DNA of 43,311 nt from a virus (lineage: Duplodnaviria; Heunggongvirae; Uroviricota; Caudoviricetes): positions 1 to 43,311 of the IMG/VR virus record IMGVR_UViG_2537561670_000003; one strand, 5' to 3'. The notes beneath the pieces are model-generated. The model was not told the DNA's origin. It made no database searches and worked only from the letters and a program-made list of their open reading frames with translations. Of the stretch, positions 3,070 through 35,108 are shown piece by piece (the first letter of the stretch is position 1; every line of letters begins with the position of its first letter). The translations under genes were made by a program, and so were the position numbers.

Positions 3070-3385
3070 AACAACTCCTAAATTTAGACAACATGAAGCC
3101 CGGAGAGGTATATAACCCTCACCAGAAATAATTTCTGAATTGGTTTTTAATACATGTTGGGCAACGCCAGTGTTGGCATAGCTATAGTTGTATCAAATGC
3201 CATTGACCACCCACCCAAATAATAATTGCCGACTACTTTATTCCTTTCTGCTCTGACATTCCCACCTGTCATTACAATTCCTTTATACCTAATATTTCCG
3301 TAACCACCAACGTGTCGACAGTTAGCCCCGGTATAAACAATCTGGCAAAATTCATCACCAATATTCAGGTTCGCATTGGCGATAT

Positions 3386-3493
3386 TTATTGTCCCATCAA
3401 AAATGAATGGCTTCGTGCAAGTAAGAAGACGTTTGCGTTGACGATTGGTTTATTCAATCCATCAACTAAAATATCATGTAAACGAATTGCCAT
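3386..3493 (-). pseudogene. Remnant of side tail fibre N-terminus (stf 5' end), interrupted after 35 codons
   Basis: Minus-strand translation MAIRLHDILVDGLNKPIVNANVFLLARSHSF resembles the lambda Stf N-terminus MAVKISGVLKDGTGKPVQNCTIQLKARRN (recalled). Followed by stops and frame changes before the 2137..3069 ORF. Confidence 0.35.
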
Positions 3494-3574
3494 AACATTT
3501 CCCACTTTATTTTACTTACTCAACACAACAAGTATATTAAAATTGAACCTTGTCAACAACACAAAGGAGTCCCA

Positions 3575-3808
3575 ATGAAACTCGCTCTAATTATGCTGCC
3601 ATTATGTCTGTCCCTCACTGCATGTGGTAATGGTTTAAATACCGGTAAACCAAATTCCGGTGTCATTCCAAAACCTTTGGATCGAGATGGTAACGGTTCT
3701 TTAATTTATGATACCGAAAACCTTCCAATGACGGGGCAGTGGTGTCACGAGATTGATCACGAATACCGACGAATCGGTAGCCCTTCTAACTGTGTTATAG
3801 ACTACTAA
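3575..3808 (+). CDS. Small lipoprotein (signal peptide plus lipobox LTAC), probable moron
   Basis: MKLALIMLPLCLSLTAC... with perfect AAGGAG SD 6 nt upstream. Opposite strand to the tail operon, in an AT-rich stretch. Confidence 0.6.
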   Translation: MKLALIMLPLCLSLTACGNGLNTGKPNSGVIPKPLDRDGNGSLIYDTENLPMTGQWCHEIDHEYRRIGSPSNCVIDY

Positions 3809-3810
3809 AT

Positions 3811-3836
3811 ATTAACCCCTCAAAAGAGGGGTTAAT
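3811..3836. terminator. Bidirectional hairpin terminator between lipoprotein gene and J
   Basis: Perfect 11-bp stem ATTAACCCCTC-AAAA-GAGGGGTTAAT flanked by A/T runs, between convergent stop codons. Confidence 0.45.
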
Positions 3837-3839
3837 ATT

Positions 3840-6800
3840 TTAACCTGTGAATGAACCAGATCCGTGTGATACTATGATAGTAGGCGAAGAAATTGACGCA
3901 CCCCTGTTATTTTGAGCGGACACTTTAATACGCACTGTTACGTTTGGACCTGTTACAACCGCAGAATGCATGATAAGTCTCTCCATGTCTTGCACGGATG
4001 AACCACTCTCATTGCCGTTAATGTCGATTGTTCCTGCACCATTACCTTTAACGTTTGCTATAACACAGACGTGTCTTGCGTGCCCAGAACTGGATGAATC
4101 ATTATAAGTCATTACCTTTTCTAAATATCCGTCACTAGACCGACTCACATTCGTCCCTGTGTGCATATTTGCAATGTCCCCGATAAAACTTTGGGCTTCC
4201 ACAGTCCCTTTGAATTTACCGCTTGTTGCTTGGATCTCACCAGTAAAGCTACCGCCACTAGCATATACTACACCTCTGACGGTCACATTGTTGAATTCAG
4301 CATCTCCAGCTTTATTCAACTTCCAACCAGCAGAACCAGCTGCATAGTTGTTGGACTGGATATAGTTACCGATTTTTGCGTTCTCAATGGTGCCGTCCTG
4401 GATGAAGCTGGCCCGGATGAATGTCTGCCCGTTCTGGATCACGAACGGCAAAGCTACGCTATTTCCGGCTGCCGTGGTGACGGCGAAGCGGTCAGCCAGG
4501 AAGATAACCTGCGACTGCATGCCGGATGGCGTATTCTCCACGCCGATACCCATCCCCGCGGCGTAATACTGCCCGTTGCTGGAGACACCAACCTTGATGT
4601 TGTACATCGCGCTGAGTTCGCCATTAACGTTGGCTATAGCCTGAGCGTTAGTGGTGATGGCGGAGGTATGCCCGTTCACGGTCGCCGTGATGCCGTTTAT
4701 CTGCGTGGCGGTGGCCTGCTGATAGTCGGAGAGCGTCTGATTCAGGCTGTTGATGGATGCCTTGTTGCCGTTGACGTCCGTCTGCAGGCTCAGCAATGAA
4801 CGTGCTGTGGCTTCCTTCTCACTGACGATCACCTCGTCGAGACGGTCCAGATTCGCGCTGTTGCCGGCGACCGATGCAGAAAGGGTTTTACGCGTGGCCA
4901 CCTGAGCGAGGTTGGCCTGGATTATCGCAATTGCAGAGTTCTTCACCCCGCCCGTCATGCCGTCCATAGAAACGCTGATGTTGTCGATTCGCTGGCCCAG
5001 GGCGGTATCAGCCGTCGCAACGGTCTGCTCAAGCTGACTGAGTGAAGACGAAACATTCCCGACCGTGCTGGAAAGCTCATTAACGCTGGTCTGAACCTTC
5101 CCGACGTCCTGGGCATTTTTGGCGATATCTTTCGCTTGCTGCTCCAGTTCGTCGTTGGCCTGTTTGATATCGTTAGCCATGCCAGCAATTTTTTCGTTGC
5201 TGTCCACCGCGTTCTCGATCAGGTCTTTGAACGTTTCCGACTCTTTCATATCCTCCAGAATGTCATTAGTTATTTCGCTGACATCTATCGAGGACGTGCC
5301 CATGATCCAGTCGGTCCAGTCCCCGGCGTTACCGATACGGTCAATCAGGCGCGCGCGGTACCACTGGCGAACGCCGGCAGGCATGGGGCCATGCTGATAA
5401 TCTGCAGCCGGGTACGGCACCAGGACCAGCAGTTCAGGATTGGCGTAGTCGGCAGTTGTGGCGCGCTGAATCTCTGTATAGGCCGTGTCGCCTGAGCCAT
5501 CCGGAAATTTCCAGGTCAGGTCGATATGCCAGACCACATCTTCGGTCGCCAGGAAGTTGAGCGGAGTACCCGGTTTTCCCGTTTTACCGGAGAGATAAGT
5601 TGTTTCACCGTATCCCCATGGTGACGACGTATCCTGCGCATTCAGCGCCCGTACGCGCACGTCATAGCTGCCCGAATAAATGCCCTGAACCGAGAAACCC
5701 TGCGCGCTGGTAACCGGAACGTTTATCCAGTCCCCGTTGTCCTTACGCCACTGGGCAACATACCGGATTGCGCCCTCTACCTTATCCCATGACACGTCCA
5801 GGCTTGCTACAGTCAGCCCCTGAGACACATGATCGCTCTCAGTCACCACGATATTCTTCGGAGCAGACAGGACGCTTATCGGCGTGACGGTGATCGGGGG
5901 AGACTCGACCCGAACGCCGTCATCGATGTAACGATATTTGTTTGGATCGTGCTGAACGGCCGTAATAGTGAAACCGCCTGTACTGTCGTCGTTAGCCGCG
6001 ATTGAGGTGACCCTGAAGTACTGTATTGCGAGGTTATCACTGTCTATCGCCCAAACAGCGCCCGCCACAGGAACCTGACTGAATGCCGTAGCCACCGTCA
6101 CCGTTTTTTTATCGGCGCTCACCGCGCTGATTGTCCGCGTCTGGGCTTTTCCGTCGGGAAGGTTAACCACCAGCCGGTCTTTCGCCGCGTAGTCTATTTC
6201 TCGATCGAGGGTAATTTGGCGGCCGTTGGCCGCGCTTATACGGCCCCCGTTCTCCTTACCAGAGCGGAAAGGATCGGCGACACCGATAATTTCAGCGGGC
6301 AAAGGGATATAACCGTCCAGCCCCACGCCAAACGATACGGTCCCGTCTTTGGCATTGGAGAGCAATACCCAGCGACCGCGTCGGTGCGCTTCACTTTGCG
6401 AGGTGCAGCCGATTGCGGTCAGGGACGTCTGCCGGACGTCGTAACGTTCTACAAGCGCCGAATCGTAAACCCCCTCAACGGTATCGCTGTAATGGTTCTG
6501 CGGATCGGACCAGGACACCAGGCAGGAGCTGTAGCGATTCTTGTATGAGCCGCCCGCATAAGTAAACAGCCCATCGATAACGTTTGAGACGTTATAAACC
6601 CAGTCAACATCGTCCTGCGGGACGTCTGCCTGGACATAAATCTGATCGTTTCCCCAGAACGTTATTCCACGAAATACCGCGGCGAGATCGTTAAGTACCT
6701 GCCAGGCGTCCTCCTGGCTCTGAATGAAAACGTTGCAGGTGAAACGCGGTTCGGTGCCACCGGCCCCGTCGGAAACCATTTCGTCACAGTACTGGGCGAT

Positions 6801-26665: not shown

Positions 26666-27718
26666 TTATGATTTTTTCAGTTTTTCCACCTCTTCGGTGG
26701 TCTGTATAAACCTGTCTGCCTCCAGTTCTACGCCGATCGCCCGACGGCCAAGTTCTATTGCAGCTTTCACAGTTGAACCAGAGCCCATAAAGAAATCGGC
26801 AACGATATCCCCCGGTCTGCTGCTGGCGCTAATGATCTGTTTCAGCATGTCGGCAGGTTTTTCGCATGGATGTTTGCCTGGATAAAACTGAACAGGCTTA
26901 TGTGTCCATACGTCGGTATAAGGAACAAGAGCGGAAACAGAGAAGCAGCGCCGAAGGATTTTGTATTCCTCCAGCAATTCTGAATACTTGCGGTTTAATG
27001 ACTGGTAGGTAGCCACCAGCTGGTGGTGAGGATGTTCAAGCTTTTGCTGAATATGTTTATCGATGGCGATCCGCGTGAACAGTTCCTGCAATTTTCGATA
27101 GTCCACTTCATTCGGTAGTTGCCATTGGCTTGCACCAAACCAGTGTGACGCCATGTTTTTCTTTCCGGTTGCCTCAGCTATTTCTTTCGAGCTGACACCC
27201 AGTGATTCACGGGCATTACGGAAGTAATCAATCAGCGGCGTCATAATGTGCTGCTTTAGCTCTGTGCTTTTCCTTTCGTAAACATCCTCTTTACCTGTAT
27301 ACGGTCCAAGATAGTGCTCAGCAAACAAAATCCGTTCCGTAGATGGAAAGTACGCACGCAGGCTTTCTTTATTACATCCATTCCAGCGGCCCGATGGTTT
27401 TGCCCAAATGATGTGATTCAAAACGTTGAATCGGGCGCGCATCATAATCTCTATATCTGAGGCCAGTCGGTGACCGCAAAACAGGTAGATGCTGCCAGCA
27501 GGTTTAAGAACGCGAGCATACTCAGCCAGGCAGCTATCAAGCCAGCGTAAGTAGTCCTCGTCCCCCTTCCATTGGTTGTCCCAGCCGTTGGGCTTCACTT
27601 TGAAGTACGGAGGATCCGTAACTATAAGATCAATAGAGTTATCCGGGAGGGTGGCGACGTAATGCAGACTATCAGCGTTGATTAACTCAACACTGTTTAT
27701 TTTTACAGTATTTTTCAT
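26666..27718 (-). CDS. Orphan DNA methyltransferase (beta-class N6A/N4C, DPPY motif)
   Basis: LIVTDPPYF motif plus C-terminal AdoMet-binding DFFMGSGST; no adjacent restriction endonuclease gene. Confidence 0.85.
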   Translation of the reverse strand: MKNTVKINSVELINADSLHYVATLPDNSIDLIVTDPPYFKVKPNGWDNQWKGDEDYLRWLDSCLAEYARVLKPAGSIYLFCGHRLASDIEIMMRARFNVLNHIIWAKPSGRWNGCNKESLRAYFPSTERILFAEHYLGPYTGKEDVYERKSTELKQHIMTPLIDYFRNARESLGVSSKEIAEATGKKNMASHWFGASQWQLPNEVDYRKLQELFTRIAIDKHIQQKLEHPHHQLVATYQSLNRKYSELLEEYKILRRCFSVSALVPYTDVWTHKPVQFYPGKHPCEKPADMLKQIISASSRPGDIVADFFMGSGSTVKAAIELGRRAIGVELEADRFIQTTEEVEKLKKS

Positions 27719-27868: not shown

Positions 27869-28060
27869 TTACTGGAGGCGTTTATAACATCCGAACTGGT
27901 AATCAGATAACCCCGCCATCACCAGCTGCGTAAGTATGAGCTGGCAACGTTCGTGGCTGAGGTGGGTATTCTGTGCAATCTCCCCAGCCGTTGCTGGTTT
28001 ATCGCTTAATTCATTGAAAACAGCCTTTGCCGTTTCTGTCATATCTTCCTGATTTAGCAT
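27869..28060 (-). CDS. Small hypothetical protein (possible winged-helix DNA-binding)
   Basis: 63 aa, upstream of and co-oriented with the methyltransferase gene. Confidence 0.4.
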   Translation of the reverse strand: MLNQEDMTETAKAVFNELSDKPATAGEIAQNTHLSHERCQLILTQLVMAGLSDYQFGCYKRLQ

Positions 28061-28182
28061 GTCTTTTACCTAAAATTAGTTGCGTGACATACAGATAACT
28101 CTGGTTGGTGATACCAGCAAGAGAAGAATTTGATTCTGCAACCAACAAGGCCTTTAGGCATCAGGCAGGAATGAGATGCAAT

Positions 28183-28204
28183 AAAAAAACCACCCGAAGG
28201 TGGT
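28183..28204 (-). terminator. Rho-independent terminator downstream of peptidase gene
   Basis: Minus-strand hairpin ACCACC-UUCG-GGUGGU followed by seven U residues, about 25 nt after the peptidase stop. Confidence 0.5.
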
Positions 28205-28228
28205 CTTATATGAATCTTTAACGCGGAC

Positions 28229-29128
28229 TTAGCAAATATTCCACATCATCGTACTACCGTTATGGTTTTCGATAATTTTTGCGGCTGGGCTAGTACCAAA
28301 AGAGTGCATATAGCAATGATGAATAGTAAGGACCAGATCCTGCAACGTTTGGTCACTCTCTAGCTCCATGATATTTAAACCAATATTTTGAGCTTTGTCC
28401 AAATGAATATGTCTGGCATGTGCATACGTTGCTTGGTGGTTGTTTAACTCATCACATATACGCTTAGCCTTAGCTTCAGCGTCAGCCTGACCTGCGAACA
28501 TACCAGTACAAAGCCATTTCTGGACAATTTCGTTCGCCCAGAGAATTGCTTTTTCACACTCGCCAATCAACGTTGGATTTAGTTTTTGGAACGTAAATTG
28601 CCACCATTGCAGTGCAGCAGGGTTGGCAAAAATTTCCGCTTTTGCTCTCTCATACTCCTCAATAATTGCATGAGATGATAACCCATTAAACTGTGGATCA
28701 ATTGGCCCCAAGTTCGACTGTTTACCTAAAACGATCTGCTCAGCACAACAAGCAAGCATTGTGCCACAACTCATTGAAATCATAGGTACAATCGCTCGGA
28801 TATTGGTTCCGAACTTTGAACGAAGATAATGACCAATTGATTCTAGAGCTGCGATATCGCCTCCAGGAGTATGGAGTAAGATATCCAATCCCAGACTCGT
28901 ATCTAACCCATTGATAGCAGACATAAGACCATTTTTATCATCATCTGACATCTGGATCAGATGTTGAAACCCAGGCCCCCCTTTTTGAAGGAAGCCTGAG
29001 TAATAAGAAATTACATTTCGGCCAGTATGTTTCGATAAATCACGTAAGTACTTGTGGCGAACCTCATCCGCTGGTGTACGTTGAGCGATAGTACCCATCT
29101 CACCCAATACGTCTATCCAATTTGGCAT
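28229..29128 (-). CDS. ClpP-fold serine peptidase (S49/SDH-like)
   Basis: Motifs LLHTPGGDIAA and ISMSCGTMLAC resemble ClpP-fold oxyanion-hole and nucleophile-Ser regions; low-GC gene in an AT-rich island. Confidence 0.55.
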   Translation of the reverse strand: MPNWIDVLGEMGTIAQRTPADEVRHKYLRDLSKHTGRNVISYYSGFLQKGGPGFQHLIQMSDDDKNGLMSAINGLDTSLGLDILLHTPGGDIAALESIGHYLRSKFGTNIRAIVPMISMSCGTMLACCAEQIVLGKQSNLGPIDPQFNGLSSHAIIEEYERAKAEIFANPAALQWWQFTFQKLNPTLIGECEKAILWANEIVQKWLCTGMFAGQADAEAKAKRICDELNNHQATYAHARHIHLDKAQNIGLNIMELESDQTLQDLVLTIHHCYMHSFGTSPAAKIIENHNGSTMMWNIC

Positions 29129-29140
29129 GTTATCAATTTA

Positions 29141-29347
29141 TCAGTATGAGTACAGTTGGTGAGATTGCTGACCGTTCTGCTCAGTAGTATTTGGTGTTAC
29201 TGTGCTGTATGAATAGAGCACACCACTTCTCACATTCAGATCGTTTTGCTGAGCGAGAACACGCATAGCAAAATGCTGTACGGATTCGCCTTTTTGAAAC
29301 TCTTGGGGTTGTATGCCCATTTTTTCGTAAAATTCAGCAGCGCTCAT
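29141..29347 (-). CDS. Small hypothetical protein co-transcribed with peptidase
   Basis: 68 aa, stop 13 nt before the peptidase start, same strand, AT-rich context. Confidence 0.45.
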   Translation of the reverse strand: MSAAEFYEKMGIQPQEFQKGESVQHFAMRVLAQQNDLNVRSGVLYSYSTVTPNTTEQNGQQSHQLYSY

Positions 29348-29660
29348 GATATGTCCCTCGTTTTTTTCTACATCTATGCAATTCCAGGAGCCATCAACAC
29401 AAGATGTAGTAGTTAGCAGTCGTCAAATACACGAAAAGCCTCAAGATGAGGCTTAAAAAGATTCTTTTTGATAAAGATTTAGCCAAACTATAGCGGTCAA
29501 AATGCAGATTTGACAAGTATAAAAAGCACTTAAAGCCTATAAATAGGCAGTTTTTGAGAATTAAAGCATCTTTAATGAGGTTGAACAAAATGCAGTCTTG
29601 ACGCTGAACAGGACTTTACTGGAACGTAGAGCTAAATGGTTCGATTTCATGAACCAGTTA

Positions 29661-29690
29661 CAAAAAAACCCGCTCATCGGCGGGTTTATA
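29661..29690 (-). terminator. tR'-like Rho-independent terminator downstream of Q
   Basis: Minus-strand hairpin AAACCCGC...GCGGGUUU followed by seven U residues, about 90 nt after the Q-like stop; this is where the lambdoid late promoter and terminator are expected. Confidence 0.5.
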
Positions 29691-29779
29691 AAACTTTGGC
29701 AACATATCAAATATGCTTCAAATATGGCTTATTTTGTTGCATTTTGCAAGCGTGTTTGAAGGAGATGGTGAAATTTACT

Positions 29780-30490
29780 TCACATTTCTGCCACTTTGAG
29801 GGCTTCTTCTTCCTCATAGTATTCAAGAGCCATGGCCAACGCAGATTCATCAAGCTGGGTAAAAGCGGCCTTTAACCCAGCCCAGTGCCCTGAATAGACA
29901 CGCAACCATGTCGAACGGTCAACGCTAACCATGCGGGCCAACGCTGCACCAGCATAGTCTTTATAGGTTTCATTATTTCTGGTTGCGGCAATTTCCTGCC
30001 CTGCCAGCCATACCAGGCCTATCAGTTTCTTTACTACGCGCTCCTGAAGGGAGTTATCACCCAGGCATTTCTGATAAGTTTTCCAGACGTATTCACACAT
30101 CATCACCTGGTGCTTATAGCTAAGGTCAAAACCGTAGCAGTACCGCAACCAGGCCTGCTGGTATCCACTAAGCGCGGACACTGCCCTACGCCACGGCGCG
30201 GACTCAAATTCCGCATCTTTTATCGGCGGCATTGGCCTGCGGCGGCTGCGTGTTTCCAGCACATACAGTGGCGCGGAAAGTGAGTTAACAAAGCGTGGCC
30301 CCTTCTCTCCTTCGAGTTCGACGAGATGAATTCCACGGCGAGGGGTGGCATTTTTGTCTGCTGGTGGGTGTTCACTGAAAGCCTCAAGCTGCCCTTTTGT
30401 TCCCCCAGACAGGTCAGGTAGCGCGCGGCGCAATTCTATTCTTACAAAATTCAGGTCTTGTTGATTCATGCTTCTTTGCGCTCCATACAC
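29780..30490 (-). CDS. Putative late antiterminator Q
   Basis: Assigned by position: last early gene, immediately upstream of the tR'-like terminator and the lysis region. Family assignment is not certain from sequence alone. Confidence 0.45.
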   Translation of the reverse strand: MYGAQRSMNQQDLNFVRIELRRALPDLSGGTKGQLEAFSEHPPADKNATPRRGIHLVELEGEKGPRFVNSLSAPLYVLETRSRRRPMPPIKDAEFESAPWRRAVSALSGYQQAWLRYCYGFDLSYKHQVMMCEYVWKTYQKCLGDNSLQERVVKKLIGLVWLAGQEIAATRNNETYKDYAGAALARMVSVDRSTWLRVYSGHWAGLKAAFTQLDESALAMALEYYEEEEALKVAEM

Positions 30491-31519
30491 TTAAGCTTTC
30501 GCAATTACGCCGATCGCCAGCGCCCGATCCATAAAACGCAGTAGCAGCTCAAGCTGCGTACCATGCTTCTGCTCGAATGCCGGTACATCGGCGTGTAACT
30601 CGTCGTGGCACTCTCTGCACAGAGGGATCACGAAGAGATCATGGGCTTTTGTTGCTGTCCCCCCCATACCGTGCCCTACGATATGGTGCGGATCATCTGC
30701 TGGCCGTCGGCAACACTCACAGGGTTGTGTTTTAACCCAGCGGGTGTACGTCTCATTTATCCAGCGGCGTCGCTTTGGCCTGAGCATGAAAGATTCTGGA
30801 GACTCCGGATCAACAGAGAGCGTGAGGATCTTCTTCGCCTTCTCCTGCACGAGGCTGGTTGCAGAAGCGGAAGGCACAATGTCGCTTTCCCTCATGACCG
30901 AGCGGATCTTATCATCCGGAAGGCGTAGCCCCTTGTGCGCAACGCTTTCCGGAATAACATCAGCCAGGTCGTTTCTGACCATCCACCAGCACAGTTCCGG
31001 AAGCGTCAGGATATGCGACTCGGGAAAACCAGAATCACGCCGAATGACTTCCAGAATCCAGGATACCAGGTTTCCTGCCGCTATACCTGCAAGCTGTTCG
31101 GTATGCTGCCCCGACAAAGTGTGATCGCAATGCCAGCACAGGCGAATACTTCCTGGTGGGTGCCGCATTGTTGTGAAGTTCTTGTCGTGCCACGATGAAT
31201 GTGGCCACTGGCATTCAAACCGATTACTCAACCATTGCTCAAGGGAAGGAAGCCCACCAGCACGCTGAATAACCCGATCATTCTCGAAGACCTGCCGCAT
31301 TACCGGATCATCAGCCAGCGGCTGAATGGCGGCGGGAACAGCTCCTGTACTGAATGACGCCATTTCTTCTGGTTCAGGCTCAAGCAGAACGCGACCGCGC
31401 ATAAAGAGGTGCATCAGTTCCGCGCCGGGACGAAACAACACAATCCCCATACGATGGGCGATCTCGGGGGTAAGCAGAGCTCTCACGCGACCTGCCCCCT
31501 GGCAATGTGTTCTGCCCAC
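30491..31519 (-). CDS. nin-region protein with C-terminal Cys/His HNH-like motif (DUF968/NinG-like)
   Basis: C-terminal ...CECCRRPADDPHHIVGHGMGG...CRECHDELH. Overlaps the upstream gene, so the true start is probably internal. Confidence 0.5.
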   Translation of the reverse strand: MGRTHCQGAGRVRALLTPEIAHRMGIVLFRPGAELMHLFMRGRVLLEPEPEEMASFSTGAVPAAIQPLADDPVMRQVFENDRVIQRAGGLPSLEQWLSNRFECQWPHSSWHDKNFTTMRHPPGSIRLCWHCDHTLSGQHTEQLAGIAAGNLVSWILEVIRRDSGFPESHILTLPELCWWMVRNDLADVIPESVAHKGLRLPDDKIRSVMRESDIVPSASATSLVQEKAKKILTLSVDPESPESFMLRPKRRRWINETYTRWVKTQPCECCRRPADDPHHIVGHGMGGTATKAHDLFVIPLCRECHDELHADVPAFEQKHGTQLELLLRFMDRALAIGVIAKA

Positions 31520-32179: not shown

Positions 32180-32566
32180 TCAGGCGGCTGCACCCGCCGG
32201 TTCATATCTGCTGATTGTTATCTCTACCCGACCTTTCGGCACAACGGGTCCCCATTCCACCAGCATGCGCTTAATCTGGCTGTCGTCTTCCCAGACACCC
32301 GCATGCGTCAGCGCGTCAAACAGGGCTTTGTTGTAATTATCGATATCCCGGCGGCGCGCATCCGGCGGGTACAGAGTGATTTCTACCGCTGCCAGTTCAG
32401 TCGATGGCTTCGGGAGACGTCGTAATTGCTCAATGATCGCCACGCAGGCAGCGCTCTGGTATTTACGGCCAGCGGCGCTAATGAGGTGACGACCGGCCAG
32501 CGGCCCCTTGTTAGGGGCGCGCCAGTAAGTGTTCACGCTCGGAGGAAAAGGCAGGATCAGTTTCAC
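32180..32566 (-). CDS. rusA: Holliday junction resolvase RusA
   Basis: 128 aa; ...LPFPPSVNTYWR...DIDNYNKALFDALTHAGVWEDDSQI... matches RusA (recalled). Confidence 0.85.
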   Translation of the reverse strand: MKLILPFPPSVNTYWRAPNKGPLAGRHLISAAGRKYQSAACVAIIEQLRRLPKPSTELAAVEITLYPPDARRRDIDNYNKALFDALTHAGVWEDDSQIKRMLVEWGPVVPKGRVEITISRYEPAGAAA

Positions 32567-33882
32567 GCGGCCTCTCCCCGCATATTGCGAACAAGTTCAG
32601 AAGCAGCAGTAATGATTTCGCTGGTGGCAGTCCGCTCCAGCCAGAGTTGATTGATATTGGCTTTCAGCTTGTGTTGCAGTGACTCATCCAGCATGTCAGC
32701 ACCATCCACCTGGTCGAATACAATTCTAACCTCCAGCGGCCAGATACGGGACTCGGGAAGCGGATCCGATACTGGTTTAGCTTTCTCACGAATGTGCATG
32801 CGGATCTGGCGAATATTGGACCAACTGGAAACATCCAGGCTTCCCATGGCTGCAATGAAGTCAGTGCTGTTCATGCCATATTCACCGGATGCTTCAAGGG
32901 CAACAGTGCGAATACGTTCCGACATATCCAGGCGCACAGCAGCGTCATCGAATTCAATCGACAACAGCCACTCATCCACACCGAACAAAATACTCTCACG
33001 AATAAGCAGCTTCGCTTTGTCGATCGTTAAAGGTGATACCTGAGTGAATTCCGGTGCTTCGACAGAATCCGCCGCCCAGGTATGCCCAAACTTCGATTCA
33101 CTGAATGTGTATTCTTCTTTATCGCCAAACGCAGCTCTAACGCATGCCCACGCCTCGACACCGCTGATAGCAAAAATATCTTTCTGGGTGAGTGGCAACT
33201 CTGCTTCTGGCTTATCAGCTGCAGGAGGTGTGGCAGTTACAGGTTGAGACTTGCTGGCAGCAAATTGTGCCAAAGCCATAAACGCCCGCCCTTTTGCCTC
33301 CAGTTCTGTGCGGTTGATATAGCTGAACCGCTCGCCACGCCATGACTTATCGAATACAGCTATGGCACCGGCAAAAAACGCGCTGGTGGGTTTCTGTTTT
33401 TCGTCAGCAGGTACAAACCACACAGGCAGATCGAACCCAATGCGCCCGCGAATGAATACAATGTGATCGGCATCTTCCGGCCACCACGTTTCACTCGGCG
33501 CGGCTTTTATCAGGAATACATAGCGACCGCCCTTCTCGCGCTGGGCTGCTGCGTAGTTCATGATGTGCGTCATGCCGGTGATCGCCTGCTTCTCGTGGTA
33601 CTGCGAACGGCTATACGGTGGGTTGCCATAGCCAGCGCCACCCAGTTCAGCCAGACGTTCAGACCAGTCCTGCGTCAGCGCGTTATCTTCGGCGGTGTAC
33701 CATGCCGGGCATTTCGCGTTGTCGTCGTCAGCAAACAAATCCAGAACTAATGGACCAAATAGCGCGTTGATCCCCCAAAAAAGCAGATCCGGTGTCCGCC
33801 ACTGATCGCCAACCTCTTTCAATTCGTGAGCTGGTTTGCTACGCAGTGCCGCCAGCGCCTGGCAATATTTATTGGTCATCAT
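32563..33882 (-). CDS. Dam-like N6-adenine methyltransferase domain (NPPY) fused to a ~250-aa C-terminal domain of unknown function
   Basis: N-terminal ~190 aa carry the GYGNPPYSR catalytic motif; the C-terminal half is unassigned. Lies immediately downstream of the O-like gene. Confidence 0.7.
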   Translation of the reverse strand: MMTNKYCQALAALRSKPAHELKEVGDQWRTPDLLFWGINALFGPLVLDLFADDDNAKCPAWYTAEDNALTQDWSERLAELGGAGYGNPPYSRSQYHEKQAITGMTHIMNYAAAQREKGGRYVFLIKAAPSETWWPEDADHIVFIRGRIGFDLPVWFVPADEKQKPTSAFFAGAIAVFDKSWRGERFSYINRTELEAKGRAFMALAQFAASKSQPVTATPPAADKPEAELPLTQKDIFAISGVEAWACVRAAFGDKEEYTFSESKFGHTWAADSVEAPEFTQVSPLTIDKAKLLIRESILFGVDEWLLSIEFDDAAVRLDMSERIRTVALEASGEYGMNSTDFIAAMGSLDVSSWSNIRQIRMHIREKAKPVSDPLPESRIWPLEVRIVFDQVDGADMLDESLQHKLKANINQLWLERTATSEIITAASELVRNMRGEAA

Positions 33883-34760
33883 GAACGGAACCCCGAATTT
33901 TCTGGCAGTGAGTAATCAACACTCTGGAAGTTTGCGCGGCTGGCTGAGTTAGTCTCCCATTTGCCGTTAACGCGTTCAGGCCGGCCAGCACTGGACCATT
34001 TGGTCGCGCTTTGCAGGTAACCAGGGAAGTTTTTTGGAATGAACAGAGTTGCCGGGCGGAGGTATTGCGCCTGCTCGCTATCACGCCAATCGGCATTTTT
34101 GTAATCCACTACCAAGCACAGGTCATCAACAGTGAATTGTTCCCGAAGACGGGCGCGAATATTCTCCAGCGACGTGCTGCATACCTGGTAGCGTGAGCCA
34201 GTAGTCTGATTCAGGTAAGACAAAACCTGTCTGGCCTGATCAGTAATCACAACCTCAGGGTCGGGTTGCGCCGCAACCGGACAAGAGGGTTTTGAAGTTA
34301 CTTGTGGTTCTTGTTTTGATTTTACTGACGGATCCCCACCAGATTCTGACGGGTCAAAACCGCCTTTTTTGCTGGATTTCGACGCCTCAAATTTTGACGG
34401 GTCGGATTTTGATGCATCAGATTTTGATGGGTCAGATTTTGATGCGTCAGATTCTGACAGGTGAGAAAAAGCAGCCTCTCGCAACTTAACGACGTTAAGC
34501 TGATATACGTTCGATGCGTTACGGTTCCCATTACGGCGCTGCTTACGGGAAAGCCAGCCATCCTTCTCAAGCTGAGCAAGGGCCGTCCTTACCGTACTTT
34601 CTCCAGCACCGATTTGACGTGCGATCGTGCCAATAGACGGCCAGCTAACACCCTCATCACTACTGAAGTCGGCCAGACGCGCCATGATGGCAACGCTGGA
34701 TAACTTCATGCCTGACGAAGCGCATGCATCCCATACGTAACCGGTTAATTTAGTGCTCAT
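33879..34760 (-). CDS. Replication initiation protein (O-like; N-terminal winged helix, internal iteron-encoded linker)
   Basis: The repeated SKSD/PSKSD peptide linker is encoded by the DNA repeats at ~34340-34465, as with lambda O/ori. Position after cro and a cII-like gene. Confidence 0.7.
   Translation of the reverse strand: MSTKLTGYVWDACASSGMKLSSVAIMARLADFSSDEGVSWPSIGTIARQIGAGESTVRTALAQLEKDGWLSRKQRRNGNRNASNVYQLNVVKLREAAFSHLSESDASKSDPSKSDASKSDPSKFEASKSSKKGGFDPSESGGDPSVKSKQEPQVTSKPSCPVAAQPDPEVVITDQARQVLSYLNQTTGSRYQVCSTSLENIRARLREQFTVDDLCLVVDYKNADWRDSEQAQYLRPATLFIPKNFPGYLQSATKWSSAGRPERVNGKWETNSASRANFQSVDYSLPENSGFRS
34340..34465. repeat. Iteron array (putative origin of replication) inside the O-like gene
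   Basis: Five to six direct repeats of ~16 bp, CAGATTTTGATGGGTC and close variants. Confidence 0.5.
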
Positions 34761-34769
34761 GGTCGTCCT

Positions 34770-35108
34770 TTAATTCTGTAAATTTACGCTGGAATTGTTC
34801 AAGAGGGCTGAAGCACTCATGATCGTACCCTTCGCGAAGGTATATAACGCGCTGTGTATCTGGCTCCCAGCGGACAACTCTGACGGGAACTCCGTAGTGA
34901 TCTCTGAACCGCCGGTTAACTTCAGCCATTCCTCGCGCCCCTTCTCGTTCATCTGAACAAATGCTTCTACCATCAAGTCTGCTGGCTGGTAGTTGCCTCC
35001 ATCAGCCGCGTTATTTATGATTTCCACATAGCCGAACTGGGCATCTTTACCCACCAGCGGCAAACATCTGAATTGCTTAGCTGGTCTGAATCGGTTTACA
35101 CTGTTCAT
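34770..35108 (-). CDS. Hypothetical protein
   Basis: 112 aa ORF between the cII-like and O-like genes. Confidence 0.4.
   Translation of the reverse strand: MNSVNRFRPAKQFRCLPLVGKDAQFGYVEIINNAADGGNYQPADLMVEAFVQMNEKGREEWLKLTGGSEITTEFPSELSAGSQIHSALYTFAKGTIMSASALLNNSSVNLQN

Follow-up and report, generated by a model that had tools for sequence, protein, structure and literature searches.

The phage N6-adenine methyltransferases of the Dam type (Pfam PF05869, NCBIfam TIGR01712) are a well known catalytic family described by a model of about 169 positions, and the commonest form among 120 database relatives of the protein described here, a form to which protein Sb44 of Salmonella phage ST64B can be compared, has 292 amino acids, with the catalytic domain (residues 1 to about 217) joined directly to a tail made of the last 75 or so residues. 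In the present work we analyzed a 43,311-nucleotide stretch of DNA (IMG/VR record IMGVR_UViG_2537561670_000003, positions 1 to 43,311; the whole stretch, 43 kb, is called the window below), which is a lambdoid prophage of Escherichia coli Nissle 1917 and is 100% identical to the chromosome of that strain. Within it, a 1320-bp gene encodes a 439-amino acid protein which matches the family models end to end over residues 1-205, NPPY motif included, as an orphan prophage-borne enzyme, and which adds 234 residues that make up two extra modules, called the insert and the tail. It is these two add-on module families that are uncharacterised. A sequence-only reading of the window had noted that the gene occupies the slot of the lambda helicase loader P, and had proposed that its C-terminal part carries the replication function or else that replication depends on the host alone. 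We consider it reasonably likely that the protein is an orphan phage Dam with two protein-docking accessory modules, and that helicase loading is left to the initiator together with host DnaB/DnaC.

In comparison to Sb44 and the common 292-amino acid proteins, the Nissle protein has the same catalytic domain (approximately 80% nucleotide identity over bases 4-606), the same tail (67% to 83% amino acid identity), and the same slot between an O-like initiator and RusA; these proteins lack the 140-residue insert, however, and in ST64B the initiator and the methylase are separated by a PerC-like gene. The complete series of Dam, insert, and tail is found in CDS0032 (444 amino acids) of Escherichia phage Eeyore and in IMG/VR orthologues, again directly after a 'primosomal' O-like gene, and the C-terminal region of CDS0032 is 62% identical to that of the Nissle protein; in Eeyore a 645-amino acid C5-cytosine methylase follows the fusion, whereas in Nissle RusA follows directly. 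In the phage records both CDS0032 (locus L002) and Sb44 (locus L003) are labelled 'phosphoadenosine phosphosulfate reductase'. Dam is the sole Pfam match of CDS0032, and the reductase label is probably an annotation error propagated from phrog_33262, a profile of a phosphoadenosine phosphosulfate reductase and Dam fusion. A further counterpart is gp48 of Pantoea phage AH07, which has the same C-terminal insert after a linker (39% identity) and the same synteny, but whose N-terminal part is ParB/HTH_ParB and not a methylase, and behind which a DpdA-like transglycosylase is encoded; among the ParB proteins related to it, about half are without the insert. With lambda P (PF06992), DnaC/IstB, and the DnaB partners, the common feature is the position after the initiator and the translational coupling and nothing else, the Nissle modules having neither sequence or profile similarity to them nor an AAA+ domain.

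The Dam domain and the two modules behind it

The domain searches bore out the sequence-only reading of the N-terminal part, namely that the open reading frame (ORF) after the O-like initiator begins with an NPPY-type N6-adenine methyltransferase. Residues 19-199 match PF05869 with an E value of 7e-43 (146.6 bits in comparison to a cutoff of 28.1; profile positions 3-167 of 169), and the equivalog model TIGR01712 (phage_N6A_met) was matched with 205 bits in comparison to a cutoff of 97.05 (positions 2-164 of 165); on these profile matches, residues 1-205 are assigned to the phage N6-adenine methyltransferase family. The NPPY motif (residues 87-90) is kept in the aligned homologues, the ratio of nonsynonymous to synonymous substitution rates (dN/dS) of the domain is about 0.04, and a Foldseek comparison of the full-length model with the Protein Data Bank (PDB) gave weak matches to E. 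coli Dam, T4 Dam, and KsgA and to nothing else. We take M.EcoVT2Dam of phage VT2-Sa to be a member of PF05869, and the Dam of Haemophilus phage HP1 presumably falls within the PF05869/TIGR01712 family as well; the Hia5-type non-specific methylases were considered as relatives and set aside as a different family. M.EcoVT2Dam has been reported to target GATC (PMC6602927), and prophage enzymes of this kind are frequently silent in lysogens (PMC4659465). Judging from the equivalog family and the reports on prophage Dam homologues, GATC is probably the target here too.

For residues from about 206 to 439, no Pfam or NCBIfam match was found even at E<=10, and neither single-sequence nor profile searches of the PDB sequences gave a match below an E value of 0.2. 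The earlier statement that the C-terminal part is unassigned thus held. When 120 database relatives were parsed by BLASTP, insert and tail were found to be separable and to occur in several architectures, and the single-domain description of residues 200-439 was abandoned. Besides the 292-amino acid form, there are the Nissle form with Dam, the insert of about 140 residues, and the tail, a 397-amino acid Atlantibacter form with Dam and insert and without the tail, and further MT-A70 with insert, ParB with insert, and the free tail.

The AlphaFold2 model of residues 205-439 is wholly helical with a mean predicted local distance difference test score (pLDDT) of 82, model residues 1-23 and 168-174 being disordered. 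The full-length model has a pLDDT of 69.6 and a predicted template modelling score of 0.40 with low-confidence linkers at residues 209-229 and 370-377, and this low score together with the disordered linkers fits independent domains on flexible tethers. The first linker is rich in proline, alanine, and glutamate and varies in length and sequence; its residues 209-229 have a pLDDT below 50, it is gapped and variable in the alignment, and its amino acid identity is 38% to 62% in comparison to 80% to 89% in the flanking domains. The hhalign comparison of insert and tail showed no relationship between them, and an apparent internal duplication, in which BLAST joined residues 292-363 to the Dam C-terminus, was rejected as an extension artefact of about 18% identity. 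Purifying selection was observed on all parts of the fusion, with dN/dS values of 0.1 to 0.4 for the C-half of the insert and 0.16 to 0.2 for the tail, and with a dN of 0.12 to 0.14 for the N-half of the insert, where synonymous sites are saturated. Both modules are acidic in every family member examined (isoelectric point, pI, 4.5 to 5.1), and no convincing structural neighbour was found for either. The C-terminal extension is therefore described as two independent acidic all-helical modules on disordered linkers (Table 1).

One could read the extension as the DNA-recognition or DNA-binding part of the enzyme, that is, a target-recognition domain or a clamp which sets specificity or processivity, as would suit the very small PF05869 core without an obvious recognition domain, the C-terminal place of the extension, and the inclusion of the tail in the PADLOC Type II methyltransferase model PDLC03332. 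We regard this as quite unlikely, because the modules are acidic, flexibly tethered, and common to unrelated enzymes: the linkers which separate them from the core are disordered and poorly conserved, the same modules are carried by the non-homologous MT-A70 and ParB proteins or stand alone beside a C5 methylase, and some family members are without one or the other. The target-recognition test likewise found in the modules no likeness to a known recognition or DNA-binding fold and no basic surface for DNA contact, and no known target-recognition domain, a possibility that had been raised for the C-terminal region, was matched there.

Table 1. Coordinates of the fusion gene, its parts, and the adjacent features in the window
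Feature	Position	Strand	Evidence or remark
Dam, insert, and tail fusion, 439 amino acids, ATG start	32563..33882	-	ORF; RefSeq WP_001704140.1
Phage Dam-type N6-adenine methyltransferase domain, residues 1-205	33268..33882	-	PF05869, TIGR01712
NPPY catalytic motif, residues 87-90	33613..33624	-	translation
Linker 1, residues 206-229	33196..33267	-	pLDDT, alignment
Insert, residues 230-369, all-helical, acidic, pI 4.75	32776..33195	-	AlphaFold2 pLDDT about 90, conserved columns
Linker 2, residues 370-382	32737..32775	-	pLDDT <50 for residues 370-377
Tail, residues 383-439, acidic three-helix unit	32566..32736	-	alignment, model helices, pI 4.68
RusA resolvase, downstream neighbour	32180..32566	-	Pfam; start overlaps fusion stop codon
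Lambda-O-type replication initiator, upstream neighbour	33879..34760	-	HTH_36 E 6.5e-9 and Phg_2220_C E 1.3e-25
Tandem repeats inside the initiator gene, 15-bp unit x 5.6 or 30-bp x 3	34374..34462		Tandem Repeats Finder
DUF4222 small gene, 59 amino acids	34750..34929	-	Pfam E 5e-18; PGAP-annotated

Distribution of the insert and the tail

The insert belongs to no Pfam, NCBIfam, PHROG, or PADLOC family, and its N-half carries the conserved motif AAFGxKxx[YF]xFxES[KR]xxH[TS]WAADS. The insert profile matched 26 of 1.84 billion cluster representatives in an exhaustive HMMER search, the relatives of the insert in IMG/VR number 392, and it occurs in 31 of 185,579 species genomes, all of them Enterobacterales except two assemblies. 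These two (L262 and L265) are labelled as a Geobacteraceae metagenome-assembled genome and a Chryseobacterium sp. and hold a typical enterobacterial Dam, insert, and tail module at 51% to 70% identity, probably as a result of contamination or mis-binning. Across the 31 species genomes the insert is carried by Dam in 17 and by ParB in 14, and altogether three unrelated N-terminal partners were identified: Dam, ParB-type proteins with HTH_ParB (P0134-P0137 and AH07 gp48), and, once, MT-A70 (P0052). The insert is always placed after a complete enzyme and a low-complexity linker. The MT-A70 protein with the insert is encoded beside an integrase, in the early-left region and at a distance from all replication genes of its locus, and a related MT-A70 protein with the N-half of the insert only comes from a phage which has a lambda-O-like gene and a DnaB-like helicase.

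In AH07 (locus L001, positions 3188-5262), gp48 is followed with overlapping coordinates by the DpdA-like gp49 (phrog_887, E 8e-97). A ParB-like DpdB together with DpdA serves 7-deazaguanine DNA modification, and the gp48-gp49 pair, in which the DpdA-like gene is a homologue of queuine tRNA-ribosyltransferase, recalls that pair. Two candidates for a stand-alone insert were also followed, of which P0029 is actually the 3' part of a frameshifted Dam-insert gene and P0121 is apparently a piece of a ParB-insert protein, and no truly free insert was confirmed. The segment 'SGVEAWAC..AAFG' was tried as a helix-hairpin-helix and rejected, as no Pfam helix-hairpin-helix model matches it.

The tail has the conserved core WPxEVxxVF...INxxWLE...II, which extends from about residue 378, and forms the end of most Dam proteins of enterobacterial phages, the common 292-amino acid ones included; it lies inside PDLC03332 and inside phrog_111 and phrog_16025, methylase clusters which already contain it. 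The tail profile search retrieved 965 proteins, many of them free proteins of 85-94 amino acids encoded by prophages of Klebsiella, Citrobacter, Enterobacter, Salmonella, and E. coli; some of these proteins are present on over 100 contigs. In all 8 prophage or phage loci examined, the free tail is directly upstream of a C5 methylase of 471-715 amino acids. In Klebsiella phage 5 LV-2017, the free tail homologue (39% identical, E 1e-14) overlaps the downstream 715-amino acid C5-cytosine methylase, and the phage carries a genuine lambda P (PF06992, E 7e-61); in the 7 further loci, the tail overlaps a methylase of 471-660 amino acids by 4 bp. The replication modules of these loci are of different types, with Phage_rep_O and lambda P in L090 and L093, an initiator and an IstB/DnaC-like gene in L091 and L092, and an HTH_36 initiator with a DnaB helicase in L094-L096, where MT-A70, tail, and C5 methylase follow each other as abutting genes. 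The free tail is thus found beside a C5 methylase with replication modules of all classical types, and the tail therefore belongs to methylase cassettes, independently of the replication mode of the phage. Among the fusion relatives that were parsed, 17 of 61 have directly after the fusion a 665-amino acid gene which matches the C5 methylase behind the Eeyore fusion. One relative, P0013 (405 amino acids), is a chimera of Dam, the N-half of the insert, and the C-terminal motif region of a C5 methylase (...GNAVPPPF...); a deletion that joined the fusion to the methylase gene behind it probably gave rise to this protein.

This distribution could also be read as that of modules which act on the host, such as anti-defence or regulatory domains, for example inhibitors of a restriction or repair factor, or of auto-regulators of the methylase, in each case co-expressed with the DNA-modification genes through fusion. 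The modules are acidic and helical and share a cassette with protective DNA-modification enzymes, the tail is widespread as a free small protein in hundreds of prophage contigs, and the strongly conserved polar motif of the insert N-half (E, S, H, W, D, S) points to a site of specific binding. Nevertheless, no family with a known anti-defence function in PADLOC, Pfam, or PHROG is matched by either module, and the net charge is just moderately negative, unlike that of DNA mimics, so that a host-directed role appears rather unlikely to us.

A replication module without a helicase loader

The gene upstream of the fusion is, judging from the two domains and the repeats inside the gene, a lambda-O-type initiator, and its PHROG label is 'primosomal/replication initiation O-like'. 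The origin of lambda sits inside gene O, and the repeats of the Nissle gene, which encode the SDASKSDPSK... repeat of the protein, are probably origin iterons. Lambda O itself has the same HTH_36 and Phg_2220_C make-up according to HHpred (PMC5509034). The most constant companion of the initiator C-domain is the small DUF4222 gene (77 of 79 and 33 of 37 loci), whose protein would be a better candidate than the fusion if a phage-encoded helper for helicase loading exists. An ORF of 112 amino acids (34770-35108, minus strand) matches phrog_1170 end to end and shares 160 nt with the DUF4222 gene in a different frame; of the two, DUF4222 alone is annotated by PGAP, and related loci show hardly any conservation of the N-terminal part of the ORF. 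The ORF looks spurious, and phrog_1170, which was built on such an ORF, is probably spurious too.

The statement that no P, DnaC, or DnaB-like gene is present was upheld. Pfam and PHROG scans of the ORFs in both early arms showed none, and tblastn found no match at E<=1e-4 anywhere in the window when the queries were two lambda P homologues, DnaC and DnaT of E. coli, a prophage protein of the IstB/DnaC-like type, and a DnaB-like helicase from a phage; as a positive control, these queries did match other phage loci. The extension offers no substitute by similarity: hhalign gave the profiles of the two modules a probability of 0.2% to 0.4% in comparisons with DnaC, DnaT, and a P homologue (0.4% against the P homologue and 0.3% against E. 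coli DnaC), no AAA+ ATPase domain (PF01695 or Bac_DnaA) was matched by Pfam in it, and its all-helical model is without a P-loop sheet. To see how loaders and modules are distributed, 80 loci retrieved with a ParB-insert query were scored for initiator, insert, tail, Dam, and loader. An O-like initiator with ParB and insert is present in 19 of the 80, and the same initiator family without insert, tail, Dam, or a loader within about 6 kb in another 20. Phage_rep_O-type initiators account for 26 loci, of which 22 carry a P or DnaB-like gene, showing that the detection of loaders works.

It had been proposed that the C-terminal part takes over the replication function, in which case the insert and/or the tail would be a functional analogue of lambda P that binds the initiator C-domain and captures host DnaB. 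The fusion does fill the P slot with translational coupling to the initiator in a window without a loader, the insert occurs almost exclusively in phages with this loader-less initiator, the P-binding C-terminal region of lambda O is also of the Phg_2220_C type (PMC5509034), and in their acidity, helical make-up, and flexible tethers the modules resemble many adaptors. The proposal nonetheless fared badly, and we consider it very unlikely, the modules being improbable helicase loaders because of their distribution across loci. Free tails occur in prophages which have lambda P, DnaC-like, or DnaB modules, and pair there with the C5 methylase, both modules follow DNA-modifying enzymes, and neither is constant, as Dam with insert and without tail and Dam with tail and without insert both exist. 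The insert is also found on MT-A70 beside an integrase, and its N-half in a phage with its own DnaB-like helicase, whereas the 20 loci above have the same initiator family with neither module nor loader. The hhalign probabilities, all below 0.5%, point in the same direction, and no gene within about 6 kb was found to co-vary with the presence of the insert, the comparison of the ParB loci giving only antisense ORFs inside the gene itself.

We therefore return to the reading of an orphan Dam with docking modules. The fusion, lying in the early-right operon, would be coupled in translation to the initiator upstream and to rusA downstream, and the methyltransferase would methylate the phage DNA during lytic growth, likely for protection against restriction and to keep pace with rapid replication. 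The tail, which normally appears to sit where an adenine methylase adjoins a large C5-cytosine methylase, either fused to the former or free, would most likely bind a partner common to both methylases or the C5 enzyme itself, and the insert presumably tethers complete Dam, MT-A70, or ParB proteins to a partner. Plasmid initiators are known to recruit host DnaB/DnaC directly; the prophage initiator may bind the iterons in its own gene and presumably does the same, possibly helped by the DUF4222 protein. Host-dependent helicase loading is presumably the simplest account, and the second proposal of the sequence-only reading, that replication relies on the host alone, is consistent with all data.

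Several observations weigh against this reading. The docking role is one that we infer from composition, linkers, and promiscuous fusion, and the shallow alignment gives a model of moderate confidence for the catalytic domain. GATC occurs in the window at chance frequency (190 observed in comparison to 182.5 +/- 10.8 expected). The tail of the Nissle prophage is conserved (dN/dS about 0.2) although there is no C5 methylase behind it, so that a purely C5-directed role cannot explain everything. Furthermore, the insert is almost confined to phages with the loader-less initiator, which was detected in 27 of the 31 genomes, and in none of the 31 was a loader found within about 7 kb. This near-exclusive tie would fit a role in which the insert docks Dam, MT-A70, and ParB onto the replication complex of the loader-less initiator, so that phage DNA is modified as it is made, and in an extreme version of this role the insert would also help to recruit host DnaB/DnaC. 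Gene linkage explains the same pattern, however; the insert and initiator genes are adjacent and co-inherited, and their association was for this reason not treated as independent evidence. We judge docking onto the replication complex to be unlikely.

Genomic context of the fusion and meaning for enterobacterial prophages

The fusion gene is 100% identical among Nissle chromosomes, was found in just 26 of 5426 complete E. coli genomes, and is labelled by PGAP as 'phage N-6-adenine-methyltransferase'; intact orthologues of 439-448 amino acids are present in 75 of the 80 best IMG/VR loci. Along the minus strand the genes follow one another as cro-like, cII-like (Phage_CP76), DUF4222, O-like initiator, fusion, RusA, Rha/Ant, DUF968, and Q. 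The stop codon of the initiator overlaps the start of the fusion in ATGA, and the stop of the fusion overlaps the RusA start in GTGA. The initiator was detected in 77 of the 80 loci, and an O-like initiator is directly upstream in 58 of the 61 fusions parsed. The synteny kept among the relatives can be written as cII, DUF4222, O-like, (PerC-like), X, RusA, Ant, and DUF968, where the slot X is taken by Dam with insert and tail, Dam with tail, ParB with insert, or ParB alone.

The papers on the Nissle prophages mention neither the fusion gene nor the replication of the prophage, and the prophage is held to be non-inducible (PMC5987069). The DUF968/HNH gene (30491-31519, minus strand) is frameshifted in the Nissle genome according to PGAP, and this frameshift together with the published non-inducibility suggests some decay of the prophage. 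A second orphan DNA methyltransferase of 350 amino acids (26666-27718, minus strand; PF01555 N6_N4_Mtase, PADLOC MTase_II) is encoded downstream of Q, and between Q and this gene lies a stretch (about 28000-30000) with a low content of guanine and cytosine, 0.41 to 0.42 in comparison to approximately 0.54 in the flanks. This stretch contains the gene of a ClpP-like serine protease of the SDH type (28229-29128), a homologue of which adjoins the repressor gene in locus L005.

The outcome of the analysis is mainly one of annotation, and it removes the reading in which a methylase doubles as the helicase loader. A prophage gene of a probiotic strain, labelled simply as 'methyltransferase', hides two conserved and selected uncharacterised domains for which Pfam has no family. 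One is the insert, a mobile module which is rare and common to Dam, MT-A70, and ParB proteins; the other is the tail, which is widespread among the prophages of Enterobacteriaceae and consistently accompanies methylase genes. The lambda-O-type initiator with DUF4222 and with no P, DnaC, or DnaB is a recurrent lambdoid replication module, and how such loader-less modules load the host helicase is a testable question. If the insert and the tail prove to connect modification enzymes with replication or with one another, they would represent a new layer in the organisation of phage DNA protection.

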